From positions 108,316,001 through 108,380,000 of the forward strand of contig CM059431.1 in the NCBI GenBank assembly GCA_030390025.1: a DNA stretch of 64,000 bases, given 5' to 3'. The position numbers and the translations under genes are program-made. The stretch comes from Squalus acanthias. Its lineage: Eukaryota. This document shows, piece by piece, positions 5,823 to 50,481 of this stretch (its first letter is position 1; each line of letters starts with the position of its first letter). The notes below the pieces were generated by a model. It saw only the letters and a program-made list of their open reading frames with translations, was not told where the DNA came from and did no database searches.

Positions 5823-7643
5823 GGGCTGGATTTTCCTGGTGGTCAGCGGGTTGGGTGGGAAAGTGTTTTTTTGCACCAGTGGGTGGGGACCCGGCTATGA
5901 ACCCGCCACCATGCGCCTTTACCAAATATCGGGTCTGTCAGCGCTGAGCAGACCCGACACGCAGCGGCGGGGGAGGCAATTAAAATCATTAGTGGCTTTG
6001 TTTACAACCACTTATCGATGGTTTTTTCCCAGCTTTTTGGATTTGATAGGCCCCCCACTGGTTTCCCGCTGTGCCTAGCCCAACCTGCCAACCTGGCGCA
6101 TCATGTGGCAGCCAGGGTGTACAGCGTCAAGTGAAGTAAATCTGGCCATCTGTGAAGCTGAGGCGGGAGGTCAGTGGCCATTGAATCAGCTGATGAGTTG
6201 ACAGCTTCAAATGTCAAGTCAAAGCTCCCAGCTGATTGAGATATGTTCCCTTAACCATTAGCTTCTCTAAACTGCATATCCAGTATAGATACAGGATGCT
6301 GCAAGTCTTTACACAATTCTCCATCCAGTCTGACCTCATTACCTCTCCCACCATTGACAGATCGCTTATGTCATCTCTACTTCACCTGCCCTCTATTCCA
6401 TCAGCATGGGTGCCCTTGAAGCTCTTTCACATTGGTCCTCAGAATCCCACCACGATCAGCCCCAACACCAGCATCACCAGGCACACCAGCAGCACCAACA
6501 ACAACACCAACCTTCTCTGCAATCAACTGATGCAACACAGGACGCAGGGCATCAGCACCCGACCACATTGCTGCCCAGGAGGCCAGGGATGGCCTCAGCA
6601 TTGCCAGATTTACTTCACTTGATGCTGTACACCCTGGCTGCCACCTGATGTGCCAGGTTGGCACCACTCTACACCAACACCATAAAGCATCCCTACAATG
6701 TCCAAGCCATTCCTTTCCCACTCATCACCATTGCGGGGGGGGGGGAGGCGGGGAGGGGGGAGCATTATGTCTCACCATTCACTGCAACTCACTAAGCCAC
6801 TTCCAAAGGTGCACAAACAAAGTGTTGCAAATAAAGTTTTCAATGTTTGACAGCACATTAACTGAAAATTTAGATGAACATTGCATAAAACACCCAAGTG
6901 CCCACCCTTGTGTGTTGTTAGTTGGTATGATTGGACTAGGATGAGGGTGAGTGTGAAGGGTTGCTAGTGAGATGGGGAAGTGATAATGTAGATAGAGAGA
7001 GCTGGGTGGAGGTGCAAGGTAAGTTGGTGTGAGTACGGATGTACAGGAGTAGGGTAGGGAAGGCAGAGTGATGAGGATGTGATGAGAGGCACAGCAGGAT
7101 GAGGTTGAGTGTGGCTTTGTACTAACATTTCATGATCTACTGAGATCATTGAAATGTTTGCAGCACTGCAGCCAGGTCCTCCTGACCACAGCCCTGCTTG
7201 TGTCCTCCTCTGCAATGTGTAACCAGGCTGCGTTGGTCTCCTAGGGAGGTCTCTTCCGCCCATGGGAAAGGAAGAGAACCTCCCTGTGTGCTGCGATTCG
7301 CTCCATAAGCATATGGAGAGAGTCTTGGGAGAGCTTGGGTGCAGCCGTGCACCTCTGTGCAGTGATTGTTAGTGTTTGCAGCACCTCAATGCTGTAGAAC
7401 ACTGACAGCACAAATGTCAAAACAAAGTTGACCATAGTCCCTTTAAGGAAACCAGCTGATGACGCATCATCAAATGTCATCACCAGACCCGCTTCTTCTA
7501 ATTGGCCGGAAAACGTGCTGGGCGGGCTTAACAAGCCCAATCACGGTAAATTCATTTCACAGAGCGGGATGGAGCCAGGAGTGGGGTCGGGACCAGCCAC
7601 TGACGTCGCCCGCCACGGACCCGCCAAGGTTCGTAAAATCGCC
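5823..7643. mobile_element. Internally deleted, decayed Harbinger element
   Basis: Left end gggctggattttcc and degenerate right end aaaatcgcc. A Q/H-rich transposase-like N-terminus starts at 6406 (+). A minus-strand Myb/SANT remnant at ~7130-7350 reads AAWLHIAEEDTSRAVVRRTWLQCCKHFNDL. Confidence 0.65.
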
Positions 7644-7680: not shown

Positions 7681-9632
7681 GGCCCGGAACTTGCGGTCCT
7701 GATGATGGTGAACTGCCAGCATTCACCGTCATTTTGCCTTTCAAACTGACGGCAGCGTCAGGATTTAGCGCGAGCGCAGCCTAACGTGGAAATTCTGAAG
7801 TTGCGGTCTGTCATTCACTGCTCCCCCAGAGACTGTGCTGTGGAACCCCTGCCCACCTCCCCACAGAGCCGGCAATCAGTGAAAACAATGATCTGACGAA
7901 AACTTTCCCTTTCAGAAATAAATATCGCTATTGGAAGCCCCATAAAAAATTAGACTCATTTAAATCAGCCGTAACTGGGTTTTTAACGGCAATCTGAGTA
8001 ATAACTATTGATAAACAACCATTCTGGCCTTGAACAATTAATTTTATATTGTGGAATGTCAAATTTCTCCATTAAGTTAAACATTATTAGATTTTAAATT
8101 TAATAAAGTTTGGTCATTATATTTCAGCTTCTACCTTAACCCAATGTGTATCTCCCAATCTTTATTTCGCTATCTATAAATTTTTCAAAAGTGACTGATT
8201 ATTAGTGCTTTCGATTTCCTGGTTCCCTGTCTGTGTGAATGCTGCGATGTGATTGGCTGCTTAGACAGCTTGTTGACGTCACAGCAGCTCGCACTGTGGG
8301 ATTCCCACTAAACTACGTTGATATCAATTGCACTTTGGAAAAGCCAAACTACTCGCTACAGAGGTCGCAAAATCTTTGTGGGAAGCTTACTTCGGGGCCA
8401 GCGGCGAATGCCTTTGGTGTATTTGGACTTTCAGAAGGCTTTCGATAAGGTCCCGCATAAGAGATTAACGTGCAAAGTTAAAGCACATGGGATTGGGGGT
8501 AAGGTACTGTCTTGGATAGAGAACTGGTTGGCAGACAGGAAGCAAAGAGTCGGAATAAATGAGTCTTTTTCCGAGTGGCAGGCAGTGACTAGTGGGGTAC
8601 CGCAGGGATCGGTGCTAGGACCCCAGCTATTCACAATATATATTAATGATCTAGACGAGGGAACTAGATGTAATATCTCCAAGTTTGCAGATGACACAAA
8701 GCTGGGTGGGCGTGTGTGCTGTGAGGAGGATGCAGAGAAACTCCAGTATGATTTGGACAGGTTGGGTGATTGGGCAGATGCATGGCAAATGCAGTATAAT
8801 GTGGATAAATGCGAGGTTATCCACTTCGGTGGCAAAAACAGGAAGACAGATTATTATCTGAACGGCAATAGATTGGGAAAAGGGGAAGCGCAACGAGACC
8901 TGGGTGTCCTTGTGCACCAGTCGCTGAAGGTAAGCATGCAGGTGCAGCAGGCGGTTAAGATGGCAAATGGTATGTTGGCCTTCATAGTGAGAGGATGCTA
9001 GAACAGGAGCAAGGATGTCTTGCTGCAGTTGTACAGGGCCTTGGTGAGACCACACCTTGAGTATTGTGTGCAGTTTTGGTCACCTTATCTGAGGAAGGAT
9101 TTTCTTGCCATGGAGAGAGTGCAGCGAAGATTCACCAGACTGATACCTTGGATGGCAGGAATGACGTATGAGGAGAGATTGGGTCGATTAGGCTTATATT
9201 CGCTAGAGTTTAGAAGAATGAGAGGGGATCTCATTGAAACTTATAAAATTCTAACAGGACTGGACAGACTAGATGCAGGAAGGATGTTCCCGATGGCGGG
9301 GGAGTCCAGAACCAGGGGTCACAGTCTAAGGATAAGGGGTAAGCCATTTAGGACTGAGATGAGGAGGAATTTCTTCACCCAGAGAGTGGTGAACCTGTGG
9401 AATTCTCTACCACACAAGGCAGTTGAGGCCAATTCATTAAATATATTGAAGAAGGAGTTAGATATATTACTTAAGGCTAAAGGGATCAAGGGATATGGGG
9501 AGAAAGCAGGGACAGGGTACCGAATTTGGATGATCAGCCATGATCTCATTAAATGGCGGAGCAGGCTCGAGGGGCCGAATGGACTACTCCTGCTCCTATC
9601 TTCTATGTTTCTATGACCGCAAATTACGGGCT
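7681..9632. mobile_element. Harbinger-type MITE (~750 bp) interrupted by a CR1 insertion
   Basis: TIRs ggcccggaacttgcggt / accgcaaattacgggct with TSD AAT on both sides. The body is homologous to 9958-10699 in reverse orientation. Confidence 0.8.
8413..9615 (+). mobile_element. 5'-truncated CR1 LINE (RT domain C-terminal half plus 3' UTR), with a frameshift/stop near 9000
   Basis: ORFs 8318-9001 and 9020-9616 contain YLDFQKAFDKVPH, SGVPQGSVLGP, KFADDTKL and YRALVRPHLEYC. The tail ends in ttctatgtttctatg. Confidence 0.95.
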
Positions 9633-11129: not shown

Positions 11130-12945
11130 AAAGCATTCAATAAAGTGTCCCACAAGAGGTTATTACACAAAATTAGGGCTCATGGGATTGGAGGTATTAT
11201 ATTAGAATGGATTGAGGGTTAGTTAATGGATAGTAAACAGAGAGTAGGAATAAACTGGTCATTTTCGGGTCGGCAGGCTGTAACTAGAGGGGTACCGCAA
11301 GGCTCAGTGCTTGGCCCTCGGCTATTTACAATCAATAGTAGTGACTTCGATGAGGGGACTGAGTGTAATATATCCAAGTTTGCTGATGATACAAAGCTAG
11401 GTGGGAAAGTAAGTTCTGAGGAGGATGCTAAGAGGCTGCAAAGGGATATAGATATGTTCAGTGAATATGCAAGAACATGGCAAATGGAATATAATGTGGA
11501 GAAATGTGAAGTTATCCACTTTGGTAGGTAAAATAGAAAAGCAGAATATCTTTTTTAAGAGATTGGGAAATGCTGCTATTCAGAGGGACCTGGGTGTCCT
11601 TGTACACGAATCACTGAAAGTTAACATGCAGGTACAGCAAGCAATTAGGAAAGCAAATGGTATGTTGGCCTCTATTACAAAGGGATTGAAGTATAAGAGT
11701 AAAGACGTCTTACTGCAATTATATAGGGCCTTGGTGAGACCATACCTGGAGTACTGTGTACAGTTTTGGTCTCCTTCCCTAAGGACGGATATACTTGCCT
11801 TTGAGGCAGTGCAATGAAGGTTCACTATCCTGATTCCTGGGATGGGGGATTGTCCTATGAGGAGAGATTGAATAGACTAGGCCTACATTCTCTAGAGTTT
11901 AGAAGAATGAGAGGTGATCTCATTGAAACGTGTAAAAGTCTCACAGGGTATGACAGGGTAGATGCAGGGAGGATGTTTCCCCCGGCTGGGGAGTCTAGAA
12001 CCAGGGGTCACAGTCTCAGAATAAAGGGTCGGCCATTTAGGACTGAGATAAGCAGAAATTTCTTCACACAGAGGGTGGTGAATCTTTGGAATTCTACACC
12101 CCCAGAGGGCTGGGGAGGCTCAGTCGTTGAAATAGAAATAGAAATAGAAAAATAAGAGCATGGCTGATCCTCTATCTCAATACCATATTCCTGCTCTCTA
12201 CCCATACTCCTTGATGCCTTTTGTGTCTAGAAATCTATCTATCTCCTTCTTAAATATATTCAGTGACTTGGCCTCCACAGCCTTCTGTGGTAGAGAATTC
12301 CACAGGTTCACTACCCTCTGAGTGAAGACATTTCTCCTCATCTCAGTCCTAAATGTCCTACCCCATATCCTGAGACTGTGACTCCTCGTTCTTGACCCCC
12401 CAGCCAGGGGAAACATCCTCCCTGCATCCAGTCTGTCTAGCCCTGTCAGAATTTTATATGTTTCAATGAGATCCCCTCTCATTCTTCTAAACGCTAGTGA
12501 ATACAGGCCTAGTCGACCCAATCTCTCCTCATACGACAGTCCTGCCATCCCAGGAATCAGTCTGGTGAGCCTTCGCTGCACTCCCTCTATGGCAAGTATA
12601 TCCTTTCTTAGGTAAGGAGACCAAAACTGCACATAGTACTCCAGATGTGGTCTCACCAAGGCCCTGTATAACTGTAGTAAGACATCCTTGCTCCTGTACT
12701 CAAATCCCCTTGCAATGAAGGCCAACATACCATTTGCCTTCCTAACTGCTTGCTGCAGCTGCATGTTTGCTTTCAGTATATTCAAGACAGGGATCGATAT
12801 AATTTTGATTACTAAGGGAACCAAGGGATATGGAGATCGGGCGGGAAGGTAGAGTTGAAGTAGATCAGCTATGATCTTATTCAATGGTGGATCAGGCTCG
12901 AGGGGCCGTATGGCTTACTTCTTCTCCTATTTGTTATGTTCATAT
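11130..12945 (+). mobile_element. 5'-truncated CR1 LINE, interrupted at ~12150-12773 by an antisense CR1
   Basis: GVPQGSVLGP, KFADDTKL and YRALVRPYLEYC occur in broken frames. The 3' end resumes at 12774 (agtatattcaagacag...). Confidence 0.9.
12150..12773 (-). mobile_element. CR1 LINE 3' fragment nested in antisense orientation
   Basis: ORF 12198-12884 contains ANMQLQQAVRKANGMLAFIARGFEYRSK...EIDRFLDTKGIKEYG. Confidence 0.9.
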
Positions 12946-13458: not shown

Positions 13459-14159
13459 GGGCCAAAAATTCATCCCGCTGCAATTGCCGGTTTCCTGCAT
13501 GCCCTGCGCATGCGCTGAAAACCGGCACTTGGTCTTTTGAAAAGGGGGCGGTTCCTCGGTGCATCGCGTGCGCGCTACAGGCTGCGCGCATGCTGTGCAC
13601 TTCGTGTTTTGGACGCGCAGGTAAGGACGGAAGATTTTAGAAATGGAAAAAGGAGGAGTAAGACCCACTTTTAACAAGGTAAGTAGTGAATTAAGTATTT
13701 TTTTGAATTTTTTTTAACAGGTATATCTTTTTTAGAGACTTTAAAGACAGGTAAGTTTATTTTTATAACTTTTTAAAAGATTTTAAATTTTTTCAAAAAT
13801 TTAATTTTTTATTTAAAATGGTTAATTTATTTAACTATACTTATTTTATTAATGTGATGTTTTTTTTAAATTTAATTGAGGTTTAGCTGTTATTTTGGGG
13901 GGGTGTAAGATTCATAGATTTCACAGCACGTATGTGAAACTTATGAATGGAAGATGGTGGGCTGCCATTGGCTCTAACTGAGTCACGTGATCCCACAGCT
14001 CGCACGAATTCACTACGCCGGTGGGATACGCAAGCACTGCCCAGCTGATGTCTGGAACATCAAGTTCGTGCGAGCTGGATCTGAAAAAGCACACGCGGAG
14101 TGAGAGATCGCGGGGAAGCCTTACCCCCGCGGGAACAGAGCGAGATCAATTTCTGGGCC
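13459..14159. mobile_element. Harbinger-type MITE, near-identical to 41849-42591
   Basis: TIRs gggccaaaaattcatc / gatcaatttctgggcc with flanks ATT/AAT. It aligns almost base for base with the 41.8-kb copy. Confidence 0.9.
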
Positions 14160-14179
14160 AATCGTTACCGCAGCCACAA

Positions 14180-31515: not shown

Positions 31516-33912
31516 TGACACAAGAGGGTGAAATGAAAGGTGAGACTAGGGCAGAGATAGTGCTACAGGAGATTCAAATATTTAAGTTTTACAATAAATT
31601 GGTGAATGTTCATTATAATAAACAGTTTCTACACTTAGATGTTGTCTGTCATGAGGTCTGTACATGTGAAGTTTAGGAACGTAGGAACAGGAGGAGGCCA
31701 TTCAGCCCCTCGAGCCTGTTCCGCCATTCAATGAGATCATGGCTGATCTGTATTGTAACTCCATCTACCTGCCTTGGTTCTGTAACCCTTAATACCCTTA
31801 CCTAACAGAAATCTATCAATCTCAGTTTTGAAATTTGAATAATGAGGGGTTTTGCTAGACCAACTAGGTAGCAACTGTTTCCTCTGGCAAGTGGGTCAAT
31901 GACCAGAGTCATAGTTTTAAAAATATTTGGCAAAAGAAATGGAGGGGAAATGAGGAGAAATGATTTCACACAAAGGGTTGTTATACAGGTGATGTTTGTC
32001 CCCTAGCCTCAACAGCTTTTGGGATGTAGGGTGTTTTTGCGTGCCCCGTGTTTCTATGACTCTCCCTTGAGTCGACCCGTGCCACAAAAACTCCCCGGTT
32101 TGGGTTGTTTCCCTTGGACGGCAGGAGCTTTTGCCAATAGTCCCTGCCCAGCCCGTCGATTAGCGGGTAATCCCACAGAGAGAGAGAGACCAAGGCCAAT
32201 AGGTCTTCTCCTATGCCCGATGCGCAGCGTCCCCAGCAGGATTACTGTGTAACCCGGCCGTGACCGGATGCCACCCGGTTGGTCTTCCGAATTATACCGC
32301 GAACCACAAGCCCCACAACCTCCAAGTTCGGACCCAAGGAGTTACTATGGATAGATTATAAATGACTCAGACGAAAACAAAACGGTTCAGGTTGGTCAAA
32401 GATCGATTCCTTTTTATTACACTCACAAAAACGGCAATCCCTACTCCTCTCGCCTACGGCAGAACGAGTAGGTGACCATGGACACTAGCTTATAACTTTA
32501 GACTAAAATACCCACCCTGTTGGTTACGCTGAACCAGCCCCTTCCCAGAATCTAAGCCTAGATAAGGGAAAAACCCTTCTAACTAAACCCCTCTCCCGAT
32601 TTGGTCAGAACCCACACTTGGAAGCCTCCTCACACACACACCCGTGTTAGCCTTCGTCTTGGACACTTGCAGTTCCTCAGCAGCAAGACACGCGGGCGGT
32701 CCTGGGGATTTCTAGAGGTGTATGCTGGATATAATTACCAGCCCTTGTTGTTGATTCACGTGGTCCCGGGTCTGTTCGACTCCAGAGACAAACCGTGCCT
32801 AACAGAGGCATGCGATGAGGCCTAGAGAGTTACGTTCAGGCGGTACAGTCAGGCACTCACTTCGGGCATTCCTGGAGAGTTGGTGGACGCGTAGTTACGT
32901 GGATAACCCCGTTACAGATGGTAGAGAAAAGCAGGCAAGCAACAGCCAAAAAGCAACCCGCTGCATCCCCAAAGTTCAGCATGTTTATACCCCGTGCAAT
33001 ACACAAAACTTGCTGGGCAATTCCTGGTTACCATGGTCGCAGAGATGCTAGTTGGTTTACCTGGTGATGTCTCTTGTCCTGGATTGGTCATCTTGAAGAA
33101 AACAATGTTAGGCCATTATTGTAGATGAGCAGTACTCGAATTGCTAAATGTTTGTTAAGTTCTTGACTGCTCCTTCATTGAAAGAGTCCAGAGGTGTTAC
33201 TTTTGGCCTCCAAACCTCATTGTCCCTCCAGACATCCCGGCTCCATGGACAAAGGGTGGTTTTCCCCAAAACTCACAAGTTTGAATATGAAAAGGCTCCT
33301 GCCTTCCATGATGTCAGCGTTGAGACAGGTCCCATGGCAAACCAAAAGACAGACAGTTCATCTTCACAGAAACCAACAGGCAGTCCCTTTTAAAGTCCAA
33401 GGGGTAAAAATTCAGTTGGTTGCGCCTCCCGTTAGCGCCTTAAGAGGGCGCTAATGGGGCGCAAAGCCGCTAACGCCCGGGCGCAGCGATGTTTGCGCCG
33501 CTCGAGAACTTAACTAGAGATTGTGCGGCGGCGCTAAAACTTAACGCTGCGACCATCTGCGCGCGCAGATTATGACGTCATTCCATGGTGCAACGCCCTT
33601 GTGGCACCCCGGAGCGGAAATTGAGTGGCGCCCCCTGCCTTACCGCCTGGCGCTTCCAACGACCGGAAGATTGGAACGCTATCAATCGCTGTGGGGCTGG
33701 GGGGGGGCGCTATTTAAAGGGGGCCTCTTCCTGTCTTTTTCTGTGGTCGACATTTATGCACCACTCGTTCTGAGAGAGAGAGAGAGATTCGGAGAGAGAG
33801 AGAGAGAGACTTCTACATTGACTCAACGCTTTGTGAGGTAGTTTTGCCTATTCATCCTAACTTTGTTGCTACTTTAGTTGCTGTCCCTCATTACTTTTCT
33901 TGCAAAGAGAAT

Positions 33913-35073
33913 ATGGGGGCTGCACTGATTGGGGGCATCGTCCTGCTCCAGCTGAATCGGAGGATACAGAGACGCAGAGAGAGAGTGGCAATGATGGCCA
34001 GACGGAGGAGGGCCATCAGGCGCATGTACAGGAGAGCTTACCCTCCCAGGGTATATCGTGAACAGCTCTCCTACATCCATATGTCTGAGGAGCTGTGTTT
34101 GCGAAGGCTGCGATTCAGCAAGGAGGTGGTCACTGAGCTCTGCCACCTGCTGCAGCCAGATCTGCAGCCTCAACTGAGGTCCAGGACGTCTCTGTCGGTG
34201 GCAGTGAAGGTCACAGTGGCTTTGAACTTCTTCGCCACTGGCTCATTCCAAGCTGCTGTTGGGGACCTCGCCAATATCTCCCAGTTCGCGGTGCATCGCT
34301 GCATCCGGCAGGTCACAAATGCCCTCTTCAGAAGGAGACGAGAGTTCATCTTTTTCCCTATGACCCCAGACAAGCAGCGTGACCGCGCTCTGGGCTTTGC
34401 GAGGGTAGCGGGCTTCCCCATGGTGCAGGGCGCCATTGACTGCACGCATGTGGCTTTGCGTGCTCCGCGTGAGAATCCAGAGGAATTCAGGAACAGAAAG
34501 GGGTTCCATTCCTTGAATGTCCAGTTGGTCTGTGACCACAGACAGCTGATACTCGCTGTCAATGCCCACTATCCTGGCAGCTGCCACGATGCTTTTATCC
34601 TGCGCCAGACTACTGTGGCAGAACTTTTCGAGGCAGCGCACCAGCCAGTTGGTTGGCTTCTCGGGGACAAGGGGTATGCATTGAGCACCTGGCTGATGAC
34701 ACCGCTCCGTACGCCAAACACCCCTGCTGAGCTGCGGTACAATGAAAGCCATCAAGCAACCAGGAACATTATTGAGCGCACAATCGGCGTGCTGAAACAA
34801 CGGTTCCGCTGTCTGGACCATTCCGGAGGAGCCCTGCAGTACTCGCCTGAGCAAGTATCGAACTTTGTAGTCGTGTGCTGCATGTTGCACAACATGGCAA
34901 TCCTCAGGACCCAGCCAATGCCACCAGGCCTTGTAGCACCACTAGAGGAGGAGGAGGAAGAGGAGGAAGAGGACGAGGACGATGATCATCAGCAGCACCA
35001 AGGCGGGAGGGCGGCCCACAATGGTCAAACTGCAAGGGCCGTCCGTCAACGGCTAATAGCAAGCCGCTTCTAG
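33913..35073 (+). CDS. Harbinger DDE transposase (HARBI1-like nuclease), intact, 386 aa from the first ATG
   Basis: Open ORF with catalytic motifs GAIDCTHV, LLGDKGY and RNIIERTIGVLKQRFRCL, plus RNRKGFHSLNVQLVCD, PGSCHDAFIL, CCMLHNM and an acidic tail. A TATTTAAA lies near 33711 and AATAAA at 35235. Confidence 0.95.
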   Translation: MGAALIGGIVLLQLNRRIQRRRERVAMMARRRRAIRRMYRRAYPPRVYREQLSYIHMSEELCLRRLRFSKEVVTELCHLLQPDLQPQLRSRTSLSVAVKVTVALNFFATGSFQAAVGDLANISQFAVHRCIRQVTNALFRRRREFIFFPMTPDKQRDRALGFARVAGFPMVQGAIDCTHVALRAPRENPEEFRNRKGFHSLNVQLVCDHRQLILAVNAHYPGSCHDAFILRQTTVAELFEAAHQPVGWLLGDKGYALSTWLMTPLRTPNTPAELRYNESHQATRNIIERTIGVLKQRFRCLDHSGGALQYSPEQVSNFVVVCCMLHNMAILRTQPMPPGLVAPLEEEEEEEEEDEDDDHQQHQGGRAAHNGQTARAVRQRLIASRF

Positions 35074-35367
35074 GGCCCCTGCCATTGCTACCAACATTAA
35101 TCAACCCAGCACGCAACCCCTAAGCCGGCCAAGGCACCAATAATTCCAACCACCAGCCATGTATATTTTGAATACAGAAACTTATTTATTTTACAAACTC
35201 TGTGTGTGTCAATTCCTCATGACAAACTCATAGAAATAAACACAAAAAAACAGTCAATAACATAACTGGTTCTCACAACCTGGAGATAATGTCCAAAACA
35301 CTAAACAAAAGTTGGACCATGAACCTCGGCCTTTAATAAAAAAATGACCAGCATTTTGTCACACCTC

Positions 35368-37245
35368 CTACTTTTTGCCCTTCGAGCGTGATCTCCTTCC
35401 CTTGCGCACTTCCCCCCTTCTAACCCTACTGCTCCTCCGTAATGGGACCTCAGTGGCTGCAGCAAGGCTGGTGGAAGGCTGCTGCTCGTCAGACCCTGAC
35501 ACTGCAGATGCCCCTGAAGGACGGCCTCGACCACTTCTGGGCCTGGAGGGCCCGGCTGCAGACTGCACCAACTCTGCATGGGCGGCAGCAGTCTGTCCTA
35601 CAGGCGGTGGCAAGTGCAGTGGAGAAGTGACAGTGTTGGCAGCAGGAATGCTGTCATCGTGAGAGAGGACAGCAACTCCCTGCTCGCCCGACACACTGGC
35701 ACTCCCACGGGGCAGCACTTCAGCATCCGGAGCAATCTGCCGGAGAACAGATTGCTGGCCTGCTGCGGCGCGGTGACAGCCCCGGGGACATGTGCACGAA
35801 CCATCGAGGTTGGCAGCAGTCTGTGCTCGCGTGGCCTCAATCTGAGTCTGTATGAGAGCAGTCAGAGATGGGATCACGGCAGCCAGTGACTGAATTGCAG
35901 CACTAAGCATTAGTGTGGCATCCGCCTGTGCTACAGCGAAGTGCTCCACACTCCTTGCCAGTGACTCAATGCATTCGGGCACCCTTCCCACTGCACCCAT
36001 AAGCTCAGTGTGCATGCCCACCGCCTGGGTGTTCATTTCTGCAATCAGCCGCTCCTCCTCTGCGTCCATTGCAGTAGGAGTGTCTGGCATACTCTCCCTC
36101 TGGGGAGAAGGCCCCCGTTCTTCCCTACCCCCCCCCATGGCGTTGCTGCAGCCCGCTGGGTCCTGGAGCTTCACCCTCATCAGCCCCTTCCCCCCTGCTC
36201 CCCTCCGGGGAAGGCGTGTTCCCAGTGTGGGCATGGGCTTCCTCGGGAGAGGGTGGCACTGATGCTCTGGCTTCCTCTTCCTCCTCAGCTGCAGCATCAC
36301 TCCCAGTGGCAGCTTCAGGGCCCGTCTCCTCAGCTGGTGAATCACCATCTGAAAGCAGGGAGGTACAAGAGTGGCTTTAGCGTGAGGACAGGGTGGCAGT
36401 AAGGGAGGAATAAGTGCAGCGAGTTAGCAAGTTGGATTGAAAGTGTCAAAGGCTGGTGTTGTGAGGGACAAGTGGAAGGACAGAGGACAAAAAGGTGATG
36501 ACCTTACCATTGCTGTCCAGAACGGGGTCGGCGTCTCCAGTGGCGACGGGACCGATCACCCGGCTTGCCACAATCCTGTGGACGCGCTCCTCCAGATCGC
36601 TGAGGGGTTGCAGCTGAGGCCGCCCTCCACCTGTCCGTTGCTGCTGTCTCCTATTATGAGCCAGCTTAGCCTGCAAGAAAAAGGACAGCATCTGAGTAAA
36701 TATACAGCCATGGTCTTGCCTGATGTGCCTCCCATAGGTGAATAGCCCTTACTGTATGCAGCCATGGTCTTGCCTGATGTGCCTCCCATAGGTGAATAGC
36801 CCTTACTGTATGCAGCCATGGTCTTGCCTGATGTGCCTCCCATAGGTGAATCGCCCTTACTGTATGCAAAGTGTGGAATGTGTGTGTGTGTTTGATGAAA
36901 GGGCCATAGGTGTTGGATGAGTGTTGTGCATTGGGGTTTTAAGACCCTCTGGCCATAGAGTGAGGTTGAGATGGAGGGATGGAGAGGTATTGAGAAAAAG
37001 CCACTCACCCTGACGACCCGAGTGAGGTCGTTGAACTTTTTGCGGCATTGAGTATGGGTCCTGGGCACCATGCTCCTGGAGGAGACGCTCTGAGCCACCT
37101 CCCTCCACACTCTTCTGAACTCGCGTGGCAAAGGCCTCCTGCCACTCTCAGGGAACAGCATACATCGTCTGCGCTCCACTGCGCCAACCAGAGCATCCAA
37201 GGCCCGCTCGGTGAAGCGATGAGCGCGTTCTCTCACCCTCTCCAT
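35368..37245 (-). CDS. Harbinger Myb/SANT-like DNA-binding protein, 3 exons (37245-37009, 36670-36508, 36348-35368), with a 1-bp frameshift in the G9 run at 36128-36136
   Basis: Exon 1 reads RFTERALDALV..VWREVAQSVSS..RTHTQCRKKFNDL and exon 2 reads AKLAHNRRQQQRTGGG. Splice sites are canonical (AGG|GTGAGT, ttcttgcag|, ATG|GTAAGG, ctttcag|) with phases 0 and 1. Confidence 0.85.
36705..36868. repeat. 54-bp tandem repeat, 3 copies, in intron 1 of the Myb gene
   Basis: Unit cagccatggtcttgcctgatgtgcctcccataggtgaatagcccttactgtatg. Confidence 0.95.
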
Positions 37246-38029
37246 GCTTGGCAGCAAAATGGATTCACAGGTCTCTCCAGGCTGAGATTCAAGGCTGCAA
37301 TGAGCAGGGTGTGGCTGGGGAGCAAGTGGCCCCCCCCGCTTTAAGAAGTGGCCGGCGCCAGTGTGTCTGTGTTCCCTCGCTAACTGGCAGCAGCTGCGCT
37401 GCGCTCGCGCGCTGAGTTAGCGCCTCACTCCTTGGCCTTTGCGCCTTAAGACAGGTGTGCAGCGCCTGATTTAGCGCTCCACTCACCTCCCGGGGCGGTA
37501 AAAGTGAAGTTTCCAGTCAGTGCCGATAATTAGCGCCAGGCGCTAATATTTGCGTCCAGACGATATTTGCGCCCCAAATGGGGCGCGACCTAATTTCTAC
37601 CCCCAAAAGTCCAATCTCCATTTTTAAAATGCAGCCCACGTGCGTCTCCATTTTAAAAGGGTACATATCCATTTTAAACGTCCAAAAATCCTTGAGGCAC
37701 TGATGTTGGCACCGGCCAAACCCTACAGGGGGGAGAGCGTTCCAGATTTCGATCTACCAATCTGAACAGCAACTTAAAAGAATATAAAAGGTGAGCCATT
37801 GTTGTTTATTGCTTGGCAATGTAACATAGTTGTGGACAGATGTGTAAGTGTAAAATCTCCAGTCCAGGTGCAGAGCCTACGGGACTGGATCACATTTGCA
37901 CATTTTCCAGGGGGGCTGACCTCGGGTCATCTTGTAAGGTCAGCCCATTGGCAATTTGAGCAGCAAGCTCCATGCTGGGAGTGGACCACAGGTCAGGAAG
38001 TCACTAATTTAACTGGACCAGCCACATAA

Positions 38030-38645: not shown

Positions 38646-39483
38646 AAAAAGAATAATTGCAGGGCAGCATATTCATACAGCAGCAGCAACTGTTAAAGGG
38701 CTGCCGCTGTCATTTAAAGGAGTTGCCTTGTCATTTGCCAAATGAAATGTATTTTTTCTCTACAACTGTTGGAGTCTGATTGCTGTAGAACTATCTCTTT
38801 TGAGCACTCTTCCTTACAGGTGCTTCTGGTTACAGGTGCAGGAAAGGAAGGTTGGTCTCTTTATAGCAAAGGGGCCCAAAGGATCAACACTGTCTTGCAT
38901 GTTTCGGATTATGTTCCAAAAAAGGGAAGATTGCCACGGTGAGGTTGTATAGCATTTGCCTGCGCAACGTATGTTACCATCTTATGCATGCCCCTTAATA
39001 TGGAACAGCTTGGTTGAGGCCACAAGCAAAGCACTCAACCAAGTTTTCAGCATTTTTACTTATGTACTTGTATGCCCATTTATCTTCAGGGCAAACATTG
39101 GAGCTGGAAATTAAATATGCACCTCTCGTTGCACTTAAATCTTTAAAGTTGTGTCTACAAAGTGAGCTTTCAACTAAACAGTGGTGCATGATGCAGATTC
39201 ATTTGTTCACACAAATAATGAGATGCAGGTTGTGCCTTTGGATATCAGTGCCTGTACACCGGAGGAGAGTTACAAGAATGAATCCTAGCTTAAAAACCCT
39301 CAGCTACTCAGATCGTCTCAAGGACCTTGGTCTAATTACTTTAGAGCAGCATTTGACTTCGAGGTGACCTGATAGAGGTCTATAAAACCATTAAAGGGCT
39401 GGATAGCGTCCTTATTGATAAGTTATTCCAGTTTTACAGATTGAGGGGGACCAGGGGACATGTGCTTAAACTATGTAAGAGTA

Positions 39484-39834
39484 ATGTGAGAAGTCGCACA
39501 ACACCAGGTTATAGTCCAACAGCTTTATTTGAAATCACAAGCTTTTGGAGCGCTGCTCCTTCGTCAGGTGAAGTGAAGAGATACATATAGACACAGCATA
39601 TATAGTCAGAGAACACTGCCAGATGATTGCAGTTAATCTTTCCTTTAACTGTAGTCGTCTGGCAGTGTTCTCTGACTATATATGCTGTGCCTATATGCAT
39701 CTCTTCACTTCACCTGATGAAGGAGCAGCGCTCCGAAAGCTTGTGATTTCAAATAAAGCTGTTGGACTATAACCTGGTGTTGTGCGACTTCTCACATTTG
39801 TCCACCCCAGTCCAACACCGGCATCTCCACATCA
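39484..39834. mobile_element. Palindromic Penelope-like inverted-pLTR element (copy A) inserted in a CR1 fragment
   Basis: 153-bp inverted arms (39484-39636 / 39645-39797) with an 8-nt loop and a 37-nt extension. The 12-bp TSD TATGTAAGAGTA lies at 39472-39483 and 39835-39846. Confidence 0.8.
39710..39746 (+). ncRNA. Minimal type-I hammerhead ribozyme motif
   Basis: tcac-CTGATGA-a-GGAGC-agc-GCTCC-GAAA-gc-tt-gtga: helix I tcac/gtga, 5-bp helix II and palindromic AGCT helix III. Confidence 0.8.
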
Positions 39835-40835
39835 TATGTAAGAGTAGGAATAGACCGGATGTTGGGCTGTTCTTCTTGTCCCTGAGAGCAGTGAACCTTT
39901 GGAATGCGTTGGCAGCTGGTGTGGTGGGTGCTGATCTCTATATTGCCAGCAAAAGGGTGCTGGACTGGTTTTTGACTGGGACAAAGGGAAGAAGTCTTTA
40001 GTCATCATGGTAGTCATCTGGCCATCATGGTGTGGGGCAGGCTTGATGGACCAGCTGGTCTTTACCTGTCTGTCAATTTTCTGTGCTTGCATGTTTACCA
40101 TCTCTACACTTCGTATGTGCTTGCAGGACAAGGCTCCACAAAACAGGTGTGACCAATGATGTACCAGAGAAAGGCCCCACAATTGCCACCTCTTAAGTTA
40201 TTATTGAGTCAAAATCCTTGAATTTTCTTAAAATTGTCTGGCCAGAATCCACAGAAGGGATGAGAGAGACTGGGTGGCCAGAGGCCATTAATATCCTTTG
40301 CTTATTATTCTTTATCCAGGTATCACGCACTCACTAACATGCAGTAACACATTGCATCACAGCACACATACCAGAAGGACATTCAGAGAATATACGTGAT
40401 AGAATGTTAAGTACACCTGCATAAGTCCAGCTGTGCCCAAACATACCCAATCAGAGAATCATAGACATTTACGGCAAAGAAGGAGGCCATTCGGCCCATT
40501 GTGTCCGTGCCAGTAGGAATCATCCACAGCAAAACTGTGTGGTACATTTTTCATAAGAACATAAGAAATAGGAGCAGGAGTAGGCCAATTGGCCCCTCGG
40601 TCTTTTTAAACCTTCTTATCTAAGATTATTTCAGCTCCCATCCCTTAGATCAGTTTTGACATCTTTGACAGCCTATCATTGCCTTGTGGTTGAAATAATC
40701 TTTCAGTAATGCGCCTGAGAAAATAAACAGCAAACCATGTTTGGTAATTATTCTATTTTATGGCGCCATGAGAGCTCACTTCAGTCTTCAAACAGTAGAC
40801 CATCACAAGATCTTGTTTTTTTAAGTTAGCAATTG

Positions 40836-41848: not shown

Positions 41849-42591
41849 GGGCCGAAAATTCATCCCGGTGCGCGAGAGTATGCACTGCGTACTCTCGCGT
41901 ATTCCCACTCCAATTGCCGGTTTTCTGCATGCCCTGCGCATGCGCTGAAAACCGGCAATTGCTCTTTTGAAAAGGGGGCGGTTCCTCGGTGCATCGCGTG
42001 CGCGCTACAGGCTGCGCGCACGCTGTGCACTTCATGCTTTGGACGCGCAAGTAAGTACGGAAGATTTTGGAAATGGAAAAAGGAGGAGTAAGACCCACTT
42101 TTAACAAGGTAAGTAGTGAATTAAGTATTTTTTTGAATTTTTTTTAACAGGTATATCTTTTTTAGAGACTTTAAAGACAGGTAAGTTTATTTTTATAACT
42201 TTTTAAAAGATTTTAAATTTTTTCAAAAATTTAATTTTTTATTTAAAATGGTTAATTTATTTAACTATACTTATTTTATTAATGTGATGGTTTTTTTTTA
42301 AATTTAATTGAGGTTTAGCTGTTATTTTGGGGGGGTGTAAGATTCATAGATTTCACAGCACGTATGTGAAACTTATGAATGGAAGATGGTGTGCTGCCAT
42401 TGGCTCTAACTGAGTCATGTGATCCCACAGCTCGCACAAATTCACTACTCCGCTGGGATACGCAAGCACTGCCCAGCTGATGTCTGGAACATCAAGTTCG
42501 TGCGAGCTGGATCTGAAAAAGCACAAGCGAGGTGAGAGATCGCGGGGAAGCCTTACCCCCGCGGGAACAGAGCGAGATGAATTTCTGGGCC
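41849..42591. mobile_element. Harbinger-type MITE
   Basis: TIRs gggccgaaaattcatc / gatgaatttctgggcc (13/16 match) and TSD ATT/ATT. It is near-identical to 13459-14159. Confidence 0.9.
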
Positions 42592-42828
42592 ATTATTCTT
42601 TTGCACCACTTTCCTCTCTTGCCCATTCTTGGTTGCTGGGTGGCAAGTCACCTTTTAAGTTGTTTGATGATGAATGGGAAGACATGAATTGACGGGGACC
42701 AATGGGGGGATGTTCAAGGGGTGGTTGGTTGATTGCAGGACTGCTTTGTGTCAGTGACATTGGGTGGGAGGGGGCGCGGTAAAGAGTAGCCATTGTATGT
42801 GCTTGTGTCATGGGTCCACTGGGGCAAC

Positions 42829-44430
42829 CTAAGTGAACTTTGCATTAATAAGGGTATCCCTGGCATCCAGGGCAGAAGAAATGTGAGCAGCTGGTGGTGC
42901 ATTGCCCTCATCACCTTCCTCCTCCTCCTCCTCCTCGGAATCATCCGAAGAGAATCTGAGCTCTTTGCCTTGTTCCTCCTGCAGGTTCAAACCTCGCTGC
43001 TGCGCAGCACACCATGACCATTCTGGACACCCTGGCTGGTGTGTACTGAAGGGCACCTCCAGATCTGTCTAGGTGCCTGAAGCACATCTTCAGTATGCCG
43101 ATGGCTTGTTCGATCACACATCTGCTGGTCATATGGCAATCATTGTAGTGCTGTTGGGCTTCATTGGTTGGGTTTCTGACAGGTGTCATCAGCCAATTTT
43201 GAAGTGGGCATCCCTTGTCTCCTAGCAGCCACCCCTTAAGTCTGCTTGCAGGTCTGAAGACGCCAGGGAGCTTGGACTGCCGCAGGACGAAAGCATCATG
43301 GCAGCTCCCCGGGAATCGCTCGCACAACTGCAGAAATATCTTTTTGTGGTTGCACACCAGCTGCACATTGATGGAGTGGAAGATATGGGGTTGATGAATG
43401 CTCCTGGTTGTTCTGGGGTTCCCGGATTCCCACATGTATGCAGTCAATGACACCCTGCACCTGTGGGAAGCTAGCCAGAGCTGCAAACCTGAGTGCCCTC
43501 TCATTCCGACTGGCGTCATTGCAGGCGAAGTTGATATAATTGCCGGCCCTGGCAAACAAGCCATCAATTATCTGTCTTATGCGTTTGTGGGCCACCAACT
43601 GGGAGATTCTAGATATGTTTCTGGCAGAGCCCTGGAAGGATCTGGAGGCAAAAAAGCTGAGGGTGGTTGTGACTTTGAGAGCCACTGGTAACACATAGCC
43701 AACAGGTCCAGCAGACAGCAGGTCTTCTTCTAGAAGGCTGCAGATGTCTGCCATCACCTGATGCGACAACCTGAGCCTCCTGAAGCACTGCTGTTCCGAC
43801 ATGTCATGGAAATTTAGCCTCTGCCTGTAAGACCCTGTTTCGCGGATAGTGCCTCCCGCGAGCTGCTCCCCTGTCTGCAGCTCCTCTCTCTGCTGCTCCC
43901 CTCTCTGCTGCTCCCTTGTCTACAGCTCCTCTCTGTGCTGCTCCCCTGTCTACAGCTCCTCTCTGTGCTGCTCCCCTGTCTGCAGCTCCTCTCTGTGCTG
44001 CTCCCCTGTCTACAGCTCCTCTCTGTGCAGCACCTCTCTGTGTAGCTCCTCTCTGTGCAGCTCCCCTCTCTGCTGCTCCCCTGTCTGCAGCTCCTCTCTG
44101 TGCAGCACCTCTCTGTGCAGCTCCCCTCTCTGCTGCTCCCCTGTCTACAGCTCCTCTCTGTGCAGCTCCTCTCTGTGCAGCTCCCCTCTCTGCTGCTCCC
44201 CTGTCTGCAGCTCCTCTCTGTGCAGCTCCTCTATGTGCAGCTCCCCTCTCTGCTGCTCCCCTGTCTGCAGCTCCTCTCTGTGCAGCACCTCTCTGTGTAG
44301 CTCCTCTCTGTGCAGCTCCCCTCTCTGCTGCTGCCCAGCTACAGGTCTCTGAACAGCAGGCTGGTGCTGGTCATGTTGTTCCTTGTCCGAGGTCCAATCT
44401 AAGGCAGCCAAAGTGCCACCAATTCTGATG
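42829..44430 (-). pseudogene. Harbinger transposase pseudogene
   Basis: MSEQQCFRRLRLS, FPQVQGVIDCIHV, HSINVQLVCNH, PGSCHDAFVL, WLLGDKG and RCVIEQAIGILK are spread over shifted frames. Confidence 0.9.
43862..44340. repeat. 15-bp-unit minisatellite in the 5' coding region of the transposase pseudogene
   Basis: Variants of ctcctctctgtgcag, ctcccctctctgctg and ctcccctgtctgcag. Confidence 0.95.
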
Positions 44431-48537: not shown

Positions 48538-48720
48538 CAACATTCCCTATAAACTGCACGGCTGCTCTCCTCTCTGCCAGTCCCGCTCTCCTCTCTGCCG
48601 GGCCCGCACAGCCCGGGACCGACTTTTGCAATGTTGAAGATTGCGCATGCAGGAATCTGTGAATGGGCCGTGCAGCCCCTTAAAGGGAACGCGCACCCAA
48701 AAAAAATTATGGGAACATTG
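48538..48720. mobile_element. hAT-type MITE (183 bp)
   Basis: Termini caacattccctataa / ttatgggaacattg with 8-bp flanks CTAGCGAG / CTGGCAAG (6/8). It splits transposase coding sequence. Confidence 0.6.
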
Positions 48721-49443
48721 CTGGCAAGTAATGCAGGGCCCCTCCAGAATGGTCCAGGCCATGGAAGCGTTGTTTAAGGACTCCAATGGTCAGCTCTGCT
48801 CTATCAGATTCCTTGTGGCAGCATGGCTTTCATCATATGAATGCTGCCCACGTGTGCTTGTGTTCTGCACCGGAGTCATAAGCCAGGTGGTCAGCAGACA
48901 GCCCTTGTCACCCAGGAGCCACCCTCTGGCTAGTTGTGGTGGCTCAAATGTGGACGGTACAGTGGACTGCCGCAGAATGAAGGCATCATGGCTGCTGCCA
49001 GGATTGTGCTGCCTGTGGTCACACACCAGCTGGACATTGAGGGAACGGAATCCCTTCTGGTTGGAGTACATCTCCGAATTCACGTGCGGTGCCCGGAAAA
49101 CGACATGTGTGCAGTCAATGGCGCCCTGCACCACGGGGAAGCATGCTATCCTGGCGAAGCCGCGTGCTCACTCTGCCTGCTTCTCTCTGGCAAGAGAGAA
49201 TGAAATGTATTCACCTCTCTTTGCATACAGAGCCTCAGTGGACACCCTTATGCAACAGTGCACGGCGAACTGAGAGATATTGGAAATATCGCCTGTTCCA
49301 GCCTGGAAGGAGCCCGACGCATAAAAGTTCATGGCCACCCTTGCCTTGACAGCCACTGTGCGGAGATGCCGGTGTTGGACTGGGGTGGACAAAAGTGAGA
49401 AGTCGCACAACACCAGGTTATAGTCCAACAGCTTTATTTGAAA

Positions 49444-49481
49444 TCACAAGCTTTCGGAGCGGCTGCTCCTTCGTCAGGTGA
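49444..49481 (-). ncRNA. Minimal type-I hammerhead ribozyme motif
   Basis: Reverse complement reads tcac-CTGACGA-a-GGAGC-agcc-GCTCC-GAAA-gc-tt-gtga, with an intact core. Confidence 0.8.
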
Positions 49482-49728
49482 AGTGAAGAAATACAAATGG
49501 GCACAGCATATATAGACAGAGAACAATGCCAGACGACTACAGTTAATCTTTCTAACTGCCTTTTATCACACCTCGGCAGAGAGACAATCACGGCAATCAA
49601 ACATTACATCAAAGACGATAGCAAAATACAACAAAGACAATGAGGTGGGGTCACAAGGGATCTAATGTGTCAGATGCTCTCTGTTGATCTCTGACTATAT
49701 ATGCTGTGCCCATTTGTATTTCTTCACT

Positions 49729-49766
49729 TCACCTGACGAAGGAGCAGCCGCTCCGAAAGCTTGTGA
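49729..49766 (+). ncRNA. Minimal type-I hammerhead ribozyme motif
   Basis: tcac-CTGACGA-a-GGAGC-agcc-GCTCC-GAAA-gc-tt-gtga, with an intact core. Confidence 0.8.
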
Positions 49767-50481
49767 TTTCAAATAAAGCTGTTGGACTATAACCCGGTGT
49801 TGTGCGACTTCTCACTTTTGACAGCCACTGGCAATGCCATCCTCACCCAGCTCTGAGGCTGCAGTTCTGCCTGCAATAGGTGGCAGATTTCAGTGAGCAC
49901 CTCCTTAGTGAAGTGGAGATGTCGCATACACTGTTCCTTGTTGAGGTTGAGATAGGAGAATTGCTCCCTGGGTGGATATGGCCTCCTGCTGAGAGCCCTT
50001 CTCCCCCTCCCCTTCTCCCTCTACGAGCAGCTTGTGCTCCTCTGTGTCGCCTCTGCTCATTCTCCCTGTCCTGCTGCAGGCCAAGGGGGATACAAACTAC
50101 AACACCCATGCCTGGAGCAACTGGTCTGAGCAGAAGCCTTGGAAGTAACCTGCCGCACCACTCCCTGGAGACTTCAGCAAATTCAAATAAGACACCAAAC
50201 CAAGAAACACCTCTACAAACTCACCAAGAGCCAATAGAAATCAATCAGCAACTAACCTGAAAGCAGGTGATGATCCCTTTAAATAGCACTGGTGGGGGTT
50301 CCTTTCTGCTGCTGAATGTATGTTCAGCTGTGCGAGGTTAAGAGAGGGTTGTTAGCTCCAGCGTTGAGGTCGAAAATGGCAACGCTGGTGTCAAATCAGC
50401 GTTGCACCTCGGACACCATGTTGGACCTGAATTGGCACCTGTAGAACCGGGCGCTGCAGCGCCAAATTTAGTGGCATGCAA

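Follow-up and report, generated by a model that had tools for sequence, protein, structure and literature searches.

A hammerhead-bearing hairpin in Squalus acanthias as the probable landing product of a Penelope-like element

A 351-bp element of Squalus acanthias (assembly GCA_030390025.1, contig CM059431.1), located at 39484..39834 of the 64,000-nt stretch that was analysed (the window), takes the form of a long hairpin with a hammerhead ribozyme motif in each arm. The locus, here termed copy A, raises the question whether the hairpin is an inherited, retrozyme-like form or the product of an inversion made while a Penelope-like element (PLE) was inserted, both of which were proposed in a preliminary description. 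The latter alternative is retained here, while the inherited hairpin is disfavoured by the differing centre of a second copy in the window (copy B), the linear structure of relatives and the lack of an array. We conclude that copy A is very probably a dead-on-arrival insertion of an endonuclease-bearing PLE, presumably primed from two nicks, with the hairpin as a by-product of landing.

The whole 351 bp of copy A is enclosed by an exact 12-nt direct repeat, representing the left (39472..39483, + strand) and right (39835..39846, + strand) target-site duplications (TSDs), while an exact flanking 12-mer was found at none of 20,000 random 351-bp intervals. The flanks match LINE proteins and, once the insert is removed, one LINE frame resumes across the insertion site, with the best match to the LINE ORF2 ends in the window (37.6% over 85 aa; e-value: 1.7e-12) falling in ORF 9002-9616, which stands after an RVT_1 ORF. 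The host is thus the decayed 3′ end of a LINE (39260..40095, + strand, ends approximate), which we take to be of the CR1/L2 type, and a high-copy LINE 3′ end is also seen at 40030-40080 in contigs of public runs. Each inverted arm (39483-39636 and 39645-39798) measures 154 nt, the two being 95% complementary with seven mismatches, and the + strand has a predicted minimum free energy of -284.5 kcal/mol, equalled by 0 of 100 shuffled sequences. No frame is open across the element, and the near-perfect long stem, 12-bp TSD and absence of an ORF noted previously are as such all confirmed. It is barely credible that the structure is a fold-back chimera of the assembly, although none of the sequence pieces listed (32 of ~38,500) spans the whole stretch or bridges the junction of copy A, given that the arms differ at 7/154 sites, the TSD is exact, the host frame resumes and a second such insertion exists in copy B.

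Within the insertion, both arms are 5′-truncated pieces of one hammerhead-bearing repeat end (pLTR). The left arm and most of the apparent loop form an inverted, tail-less fragment (39484..39642, - strand), while comparison of the arms identifies the right arm as a direct fragment (39645..39797, + strand). The arms do lie 8 nt apart, as previously described, but the intervening bases do not constitute a designed loop, as 39636-39642 continues the element sequence of the left arm and relatives are linear past 39642. The head-to-head junction (39630..39651, no strand assigned) includes three extra bases at 39643-39645 and coincides with CAGTTA-N7-TAACTG, a native 6-bp palindrome of the element, which is found uninverted in copy B at 49540-49558. 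The stem stops short of the right TSD, leaving a 37-nt tail (39798..39834, + strand) that lies inside the TSDs and outside the stem, on a single arm only, and ends at a fixed family end near 39835, the first base of the right TSD, which may also belong to the element as a 1-nt microhomology. This one-sided tail, which the preliminary description overlooked, is the key PLE signature of the locus and, together with the fixed family end and the PLE-type hammerhead described below, upholds the earlier attribution of copy A to a PLE pLTR with a minimal type-I hammerhead. A stem predicted in the folds between 39760-39768 and 39809-39817 (39760..39817, + strand) surrounds the tail-less end and represents a candidate RT-initiation stem-loop by analogy with the element described in PMC11167929; the same 9-bp inverted repeat occurs in copy B. 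Furthermore, a putative pLTR promoter (39677..39709, + strand) may be recognized in TATATAT at 39677-39683 and an Inr-like TCACT at 39705-39709, 21 nt apart, in the arrangement described in PMC3846280.

The right arm carries an intact minimal type-I hammerhead (39710..39746, + strand), as had been claimed, with a 4-bp helix I (TCAC/GTGA), the core CTGATGA and all conserved core bases, a bulged A after A9, and a helix II of 5 bp that begins with G-C and is followed by GAAA, while a palindromic AGCT replaces helix III. The cleavage triplet of hammerheads follows the NUH rule and G12 is catalytic. The triplet in copy A, CUU, fits this rule and, with T39742 at position 17 (H17), the predicted cut falls after 39742. 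The counterpart in the left arm (39535..39571, - strand) is inactivated by a G12 to A change at 39546, which is the conversion of GAAA to AAAA reported earlier, lies in a CpG and is read as CpG decay. A minimal hammerhead descriptor written for this analysis was run over the 64-kb window and its shuffles, and matched the right arm of copy A and both arms of copy B (three of four arms), with no match to the left arm of copy A or in any of 100 shuffled windows. The hammerhead search proposed in the preliminary description was therefore positive with our own descriptor but not with Rfam, which gave no match at gathering score over the 64 kb and left the hammerhead unrecognised. Eighteen weak Rfam matches at 39400-39900, of microRNA type and others, were rejected, as all fall below the gathering score, none is a hammerhead and they would fit any long hairpin.

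The two arms of copy A differ at seven of 154 sites by transitions in every case, three of them at CpG, including the loss of G12, while the arms of copy B differ at 3/137 sites. For each insertion, variants are common to both of its arms and absent from the other insertion. Judged by these patterns, arm decay in both copies is neutral, without selection on the ribozyme. Three of the seven changes in copy A fall within 6 nt close to the junction, and this clustering, together with an arm divergence of 4.5%, could indicate two different templates.

Copy B (49359..49817, - strand) was assigned to the same family by comparison with copy A, and comprises 137-bp arms around a 157-nt centre, a 34-nt tail outside the stem (49359-49392, - strand), intact hammerheads that match the descriptor at 49444-49481 (- strand) and 49729-49766 (+ strand), and a 13-bp TSD in direct repeat (49346..49358 and 49818..49830, - strand). 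The 325 nt of element seen in this copy are free of ORFs. The outer ends of the two copies agree within 3 nt, with tails of 37 and 34 nt, whereas their centres measure 8 and 157 nt and their TSDs 12 and 13 bp (both of the two copies in the window). Both sit within older transposons and, when the flanks of copy B are joined, they match a Harbinger transposase (60.2% over 98 aa; e-value: 3e-38). The long inverted repeats and TSDs, the Harbinger elements in the window and the palindromic Harbingers known in frog (PMC5625713, in the passage on these elements) might point to a derivative of a DNA transposon, such as a MITE, in which the long inverted repeats are terminal. This is very improbable, as the TSD varies between 12 and 13 bp, the inverted repeat is not terminal, 34-37 nt of tail lying outside it, and the arms carry a PLE-type hammerhead that elsewhere stands beside PLE ORF pieces. 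A DNA-transposon family with a fixed TSD length, the counter-hypothesis named in the preliminary description, is likewise at odds with TSDs of 12 and 13 bp and asymmetric ends.

Several further repeats can be observed in the window. A DDE_Tnp_4 domain (e-value: 3.9e-39) is encoded in an uninterrupted frame of 451 aa (33718-35073, + strand), which faces a Myb/SANT frame (36556-37416, - strand), so that the region 33718-37416 has the two genes of a Harbinger transposon in an arrangement that looks autonomous. Decayed Harbinger relatives are found near 42941-43919 and 48638-49990, and a minisatellite of 15/30-bp period (43865-44336) and a 54-bp triple repeat (36701-36868) lie within or beside Harbinger-like sequence. 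A 690-bp direct duplicate (13473-14160 and 41903-42592; 96.8% identity) is probably a young non-autonomous element, 64-bp inverted repeats with 93.8% identity around ~580 bp (6086-6663) represent a MITE candidate, and two inverted LINE 3′ fragments (11613-12777; 520 bp at 83.7%, 127 bp apart) are a further possible source of dsRNA.

The wider family was sampled by matching contigs from four of 24 listed public runs, all of them assembled, to the region 39600-40200 at 85% likeness, a region in which the left arm of copy A is represented by 37 nt only. This yielded 13,567 and 19,269 contigs in two DNA runs, both from organism A, and 2,752 and 2,371 in two putative RNA runs (X16 and X21, organisms A and E), the RNA status of which was guessed. 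Loose ends are piled behind 39835 in all four runs (112, 143, 25 and 15 contigs) with a consensus agreement of 0.37-0.41, this low agreement pointing to a single fixed end of the element that abuts many flanks. At the copy A junction, by contrast with the inverted structure of that copy, 10, 9 and 12 contigs continue as linear sequence in the manner of copy B, and among the 15 joints listed of 25, four change strand, at four different places and with one or two contigs each. The family is thus huge, its tail end being fixed while its points of inversion vary, suggesting that the hairpin was probably made at insertion rather than inherited. In the alternative, a retrozyme- or SINE-like non-autonomous family, a short RNA (hairpin or pLTR RNA) would be copied in trans by a PLE enzyme and the 351-bp form inherited. 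The great abundance of the family and the lack of ORFs in the 325 nt of it that copy B shows would accord with this, non-autonomous pLTR derivatives and animal retrozymes are on record (PMC8557442 and bioRxiv 10.64898/2026.07.22.740005), and the native palindrome could let the copy A junction recur. We nevertheless regard it as improbable, since copy B has a different centre, relatives are linear across the copy A junction, the listed inversions are scattered and the duplex blocks the ribozyme, while the head-to-tail array that PMC7229834 describes as the defining trait of animal retrozymes is missing, a search for tandem arrays having found none at copy A or copy B.

Among the family contigs, the consensus past the tail (39834-39838) reads ATG ACT; no earlier ATG occurs in this frame, which is open from the hammerhead onwards, and on this sequence it is possibly the start of an autonomous ORF. 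Position 17 of the hammerhead is occupied by U or C in the family and by A in two metagenome loci introduced below, with G never occurring among the listed variants. Positions variable at a level of at least 2% in the DNA runs number 0/11 in the hammerhead core against 16/96 elsewhere, a difference that is not significant (p = 0.15). At 39742, C accounts for 22-27% of the DNA depth against 2-4% in the putative RNA runs X16 and X21, which could reflect expression of a subfamily or loss of better-cleaving variants, contig depth being too crude a measure for either. Contig depth rises across the hammerhead by 28x in X16 and 64x in X21, against 5.5x and 7.4x in the DNA runs; as contig depth is unable to show RNA ends, this rise is not used as evidence.

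A hammerhead pattern scan of metagenome contigs recovered two loci, L001 and L002, which are probably eukaryotic DNA in environmental samples. Their hammerhead is identical to that of the copy A right arm at 36/39 positions; 26 of the 39 are fixed by the pattern, while helix I is mostly free and is kept nonetheless. Across four sequences the helix I and II pairs are invariant (9/9), helix II being fixed by the search pattern. In L002 the hammerhead lies ~750 nt downstream of a 177-aa ORF on the same strand, the translated product of which has no Pfam match itself but aligns with the C-terminus of an RT-bearing protein (P0001) at 47% identity over 152 aa, while another homologue (P0002) matches GIY-YIG. 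The L002 ORF carries a CX4CxxC motif. A CX2-5CxxC linker before the C-terminal GIY-YIG, a form to which both the L002 ORF and P0001 conform, is given as a mark of Neptune/Nematis elements in the relevant part of PMC8557442. The link between the hammerhead and an endonuclease-type ORF in L002 is thus seen in a marine contig. L001 contains an RT fragment on the strand opposite to the hammerhead (49% over 91 aa to P0001), with a PF00078 match below the curated cut-off (e-value: 1.5e-5). Head-to-head junctions are present in both loci: L001 1-1050 and L002 1-1470 share 677 nt of one PLE end at 99.6% identity, to which a different truncated copy is attached head-to-head in either locus. The occurrence of a hammerhead with 36/39 identity near PLE ORFs in these loci indicates that this hammerhead type belongs to PLE ends, and from these sequences the PLE source of copy A is probably of the Neptune/Nematis type. 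Beyond the hammerhead, the two loci show weak similarity to the window on the downstream side (equalled in 26 of 2,000 shuffles) and none of significance on the upstream side (256 of 2,000). No PLE ORF pieces were detected in the window by tblastn of P0001 and P0002 (E<=1), and no autonomous partner of the copy A family was found in the 64-kb window or the contig scans. The hammerhead pattern had no match in prokaryote genomes, nor had a looser pattern in viral contigs, a 23-nt family motif was absent from metagenome and viral contigs, and of eight pattern matches for the L002 protein in viral contigs none was confirmed.

The landing of copy A as a two-nick PLE insertion would proceed as follows. 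In the anole PLE, both target strands are cut and extended, and two RT start sites bound the tail (PMC11167929, in the sections on target priming); by analogy, the RT-endonuclease would nick both target strands 12 nt apart, and cDNA would be primed at each nick, with one start at the tail end and the other ~37 nt further in. Both cDNAs would stop after ~150-190 nt and their 3′ ends, complementary by virtue of the native 6-bp palindrome, would anneal and join head-to-head, after which the arms would decay neutrally, with one hammerhead losing G12. The main rival for the joining step, which alters this one step and shares the same PLE origin, is fold-back self-priming of a single cDNA or antisense template at the native palindrome. 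The junction of copy A does fall exactly on the 6-bp palindrome, and for palindromic junctions PMC3846280, in the passage concerned, prefers self-priming on an antisense template. However, the centre of copy B consists of 157 unpaired bases and, the loop bases of copy A being those of the tail-less arm, a copy made back from that arm would lack the tail that the other arm carries. We consider self-priming unlikely, while giving it more credence than any other alternative weighed here.

A variant of two-nick priming, which we advance as a rather doubtful proposal, holds that the template was a short non-coding pLTR RNA, made by a TATA/Inr start or hammerhead release and primed twice from both nicks by a dimeric Neptune-type enzyme. 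Were this true, the family would represent a PLE-driven mini-element with thousands of insertions recording twin priming directly, and fold-back copies would be a main ADAR substrate of the host. Two opposite-strand joints are listed at 39707/39798 and 39729/39800, in one contig each, with shorter sides of 39 and 34 nt drawn from the first bases of the tail. They fit an inverted arm plus tail alone, in line with the short-RNA template, or nested insertions.

The preliminary description also held that any transcript would be both a ribozyme and long dsRNA. In the predicted fold of the full copy A transcript, helices I and II have a pair probability of 0.0, and forcing the hammerhead into the full hairpin raises the energy from -284.5 to -220.1 kcal/mol, a cost of ~64 kcal/mol, whereas in an isolated 41-nt motif both helices are predicted at a pair probability of at least 0.87. 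As the hammerhead is unable to fold in the full hairpin, one transcript cannot act as ribozyme and dsRNA at once. In these models the duplex sequesters the hammerhead, and read-through RNA would form a 153-bp duplex and ADAR substrate in which the ribozyme is unable to fold. In an RNA of the right arm only, helix II is predicted to be present roughly half of the time, against ~1% for helix I. Folding of single strands of 61-145 nt that surround the hammerhead gives structures no stabler than those of shuffled sequences (z -0.08 to -0.86), and an unconstrained dimer fold, in which the helix II loops are paired together instead of helix III, is uninformative. Minimal hammerheads cleave weakly and as dimers only according to the account in PMC4209133, while PMC11167929 describes cleavage with the element's protein as well, and insertion in vitro that is independent of cleavage.

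The dsRNA part of the claim does gain support at the family level. Of 34 difference rows in the family contigs, 11 in the host LINE were dropped and 23 kept, five of which are raised 5-fold or more in each of the putative RNA runs relative to either DNA run. All five are A>G (39693 and 39699) or T>C (39754, 39768 and 39770), against 9/23 such rows overall (Fisher p = 0.004 for the enrichment in RNA-high rows). On the edited strand, a 5′ U precedes four of the five sites, compared with 10/59 sites of this kind, and a 5′ G precedes none of the five. ADAR prefers a 5′ U. A depletion of 5′ G at edited sites is also given in a passage on editing in lizard (PMC5625713). These editing-like differences suggest ADAR editing of both strands at the family level, although expressed divergent copies could mimic editing, individuals differ between runs and the signal is family-wide, beyond locus A. 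Penelope repeats are heavily A-to-I edited in lizard (PMC5625713) and Xenopus tropicalis (PMC10636886), in passages that make no tie between editing and a fold-back layout. The A-to-I-like RNA differences of the copy A family resemble these hyper-edited repeats, albeit with only five sites here, in assembled contigs and with RNA status guessed. Built-in hairpins offer a simple reason for the heavy editing of Penelope repeats in lizard and frog.

As a single locus, copy A carries little weight, being a decaying insertion in a decayed LINE. The family, however, is a handy test set, since priming sites, stagger (TSD) and junction all lie within ~350 bp, and since short copies keep all three, a genome-wide tally could tell two-nick priming from fold-back self-priming. 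The formation of PLE insertions with an inverted copy plus tail is still called undefined in the relevant text of PMC8557442, while that of PMC11167929 explains the tail and leaves later steps open. Among literature on Penelope twin priming with inversion, judged by title, nothing on PLE insertion was found, nor did the open literature yield a paper on the copy A family itself, Repbase, Dfam and subscription journals lying outside the search; the hammerhead alignments of PMC4209133 and the retrozyme/PLE tables of the 2026 preprint may already include it.

Among known systems, the closest in layout are the complex insertions of EN+ PLEs, which in the descriptions available comprise an inverted pLTR, a 31-bp tail, an 8-10-bp TSD and junction palindromes in rotifers (Arkhipova et al. 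2013, PMC3846280), and an inverted truncated copy with a 30-40-bp tail in PLEs examined since (Craig et al. 2021, PMC8557442). Copy A shares with both the inverted truncated pLTR, the 30-40-nt tail at one end and the TSD, and with the former also the junction palindrome and a TATA ~20 nt before TCACT, but it differs from the rotifer insertions in lacking any ORF, in its TSD (12-13 bp in the family against 8-10 bp) and in its vertebrate host. With the minimal hammerheads presented in PMC4209133, where opposite-strand pairs 100-700 bp apart are also described, it shares the short helix I, the bulge after A9, the G10.1-C11.1 pair and the palindromic helix III remnant; unlike the Schistosoma families treated there, with a helix II of 7-8 bp, copy A has a helix II of 5 bp, one hammerhead without G12 and an activity that is predicted only. 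Poseidon PAc of Anolis carolinensis (Frangieh et al. 2024, PMC11167929) similarly has, as described, two ends downstream of the hammerhead, spaced by 30-40 nt, and a predicted stem-loop, but its ORF starts at helix II, whereas frames across the copy A hammerhead are closed, and the Cys linker of Neptune/Nematis elements, absent from Poseidon, is present in L002, the nearest relative found. Animal non-LTR retrozymes (Cervera and De la Pena 2020, PMC7229834; Li et al. 2026, bioRxiv 10.64898/2026.07.22.740005) share, as far as these accounts extend, the length of ~350 nt, the non-coding character, the type-I hammerhead and a PLE origin with copy A; according to PMC7229834, however, they are head-to-tail tandems with same-strand hammerheads that can release circles, whereas the hammerheads of copy A lie on opposite strands. 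The layout of copy A is therefore one already published, in the parts concerned of PMC3846280 and PMC8557442, and is real but mostly ordinary.
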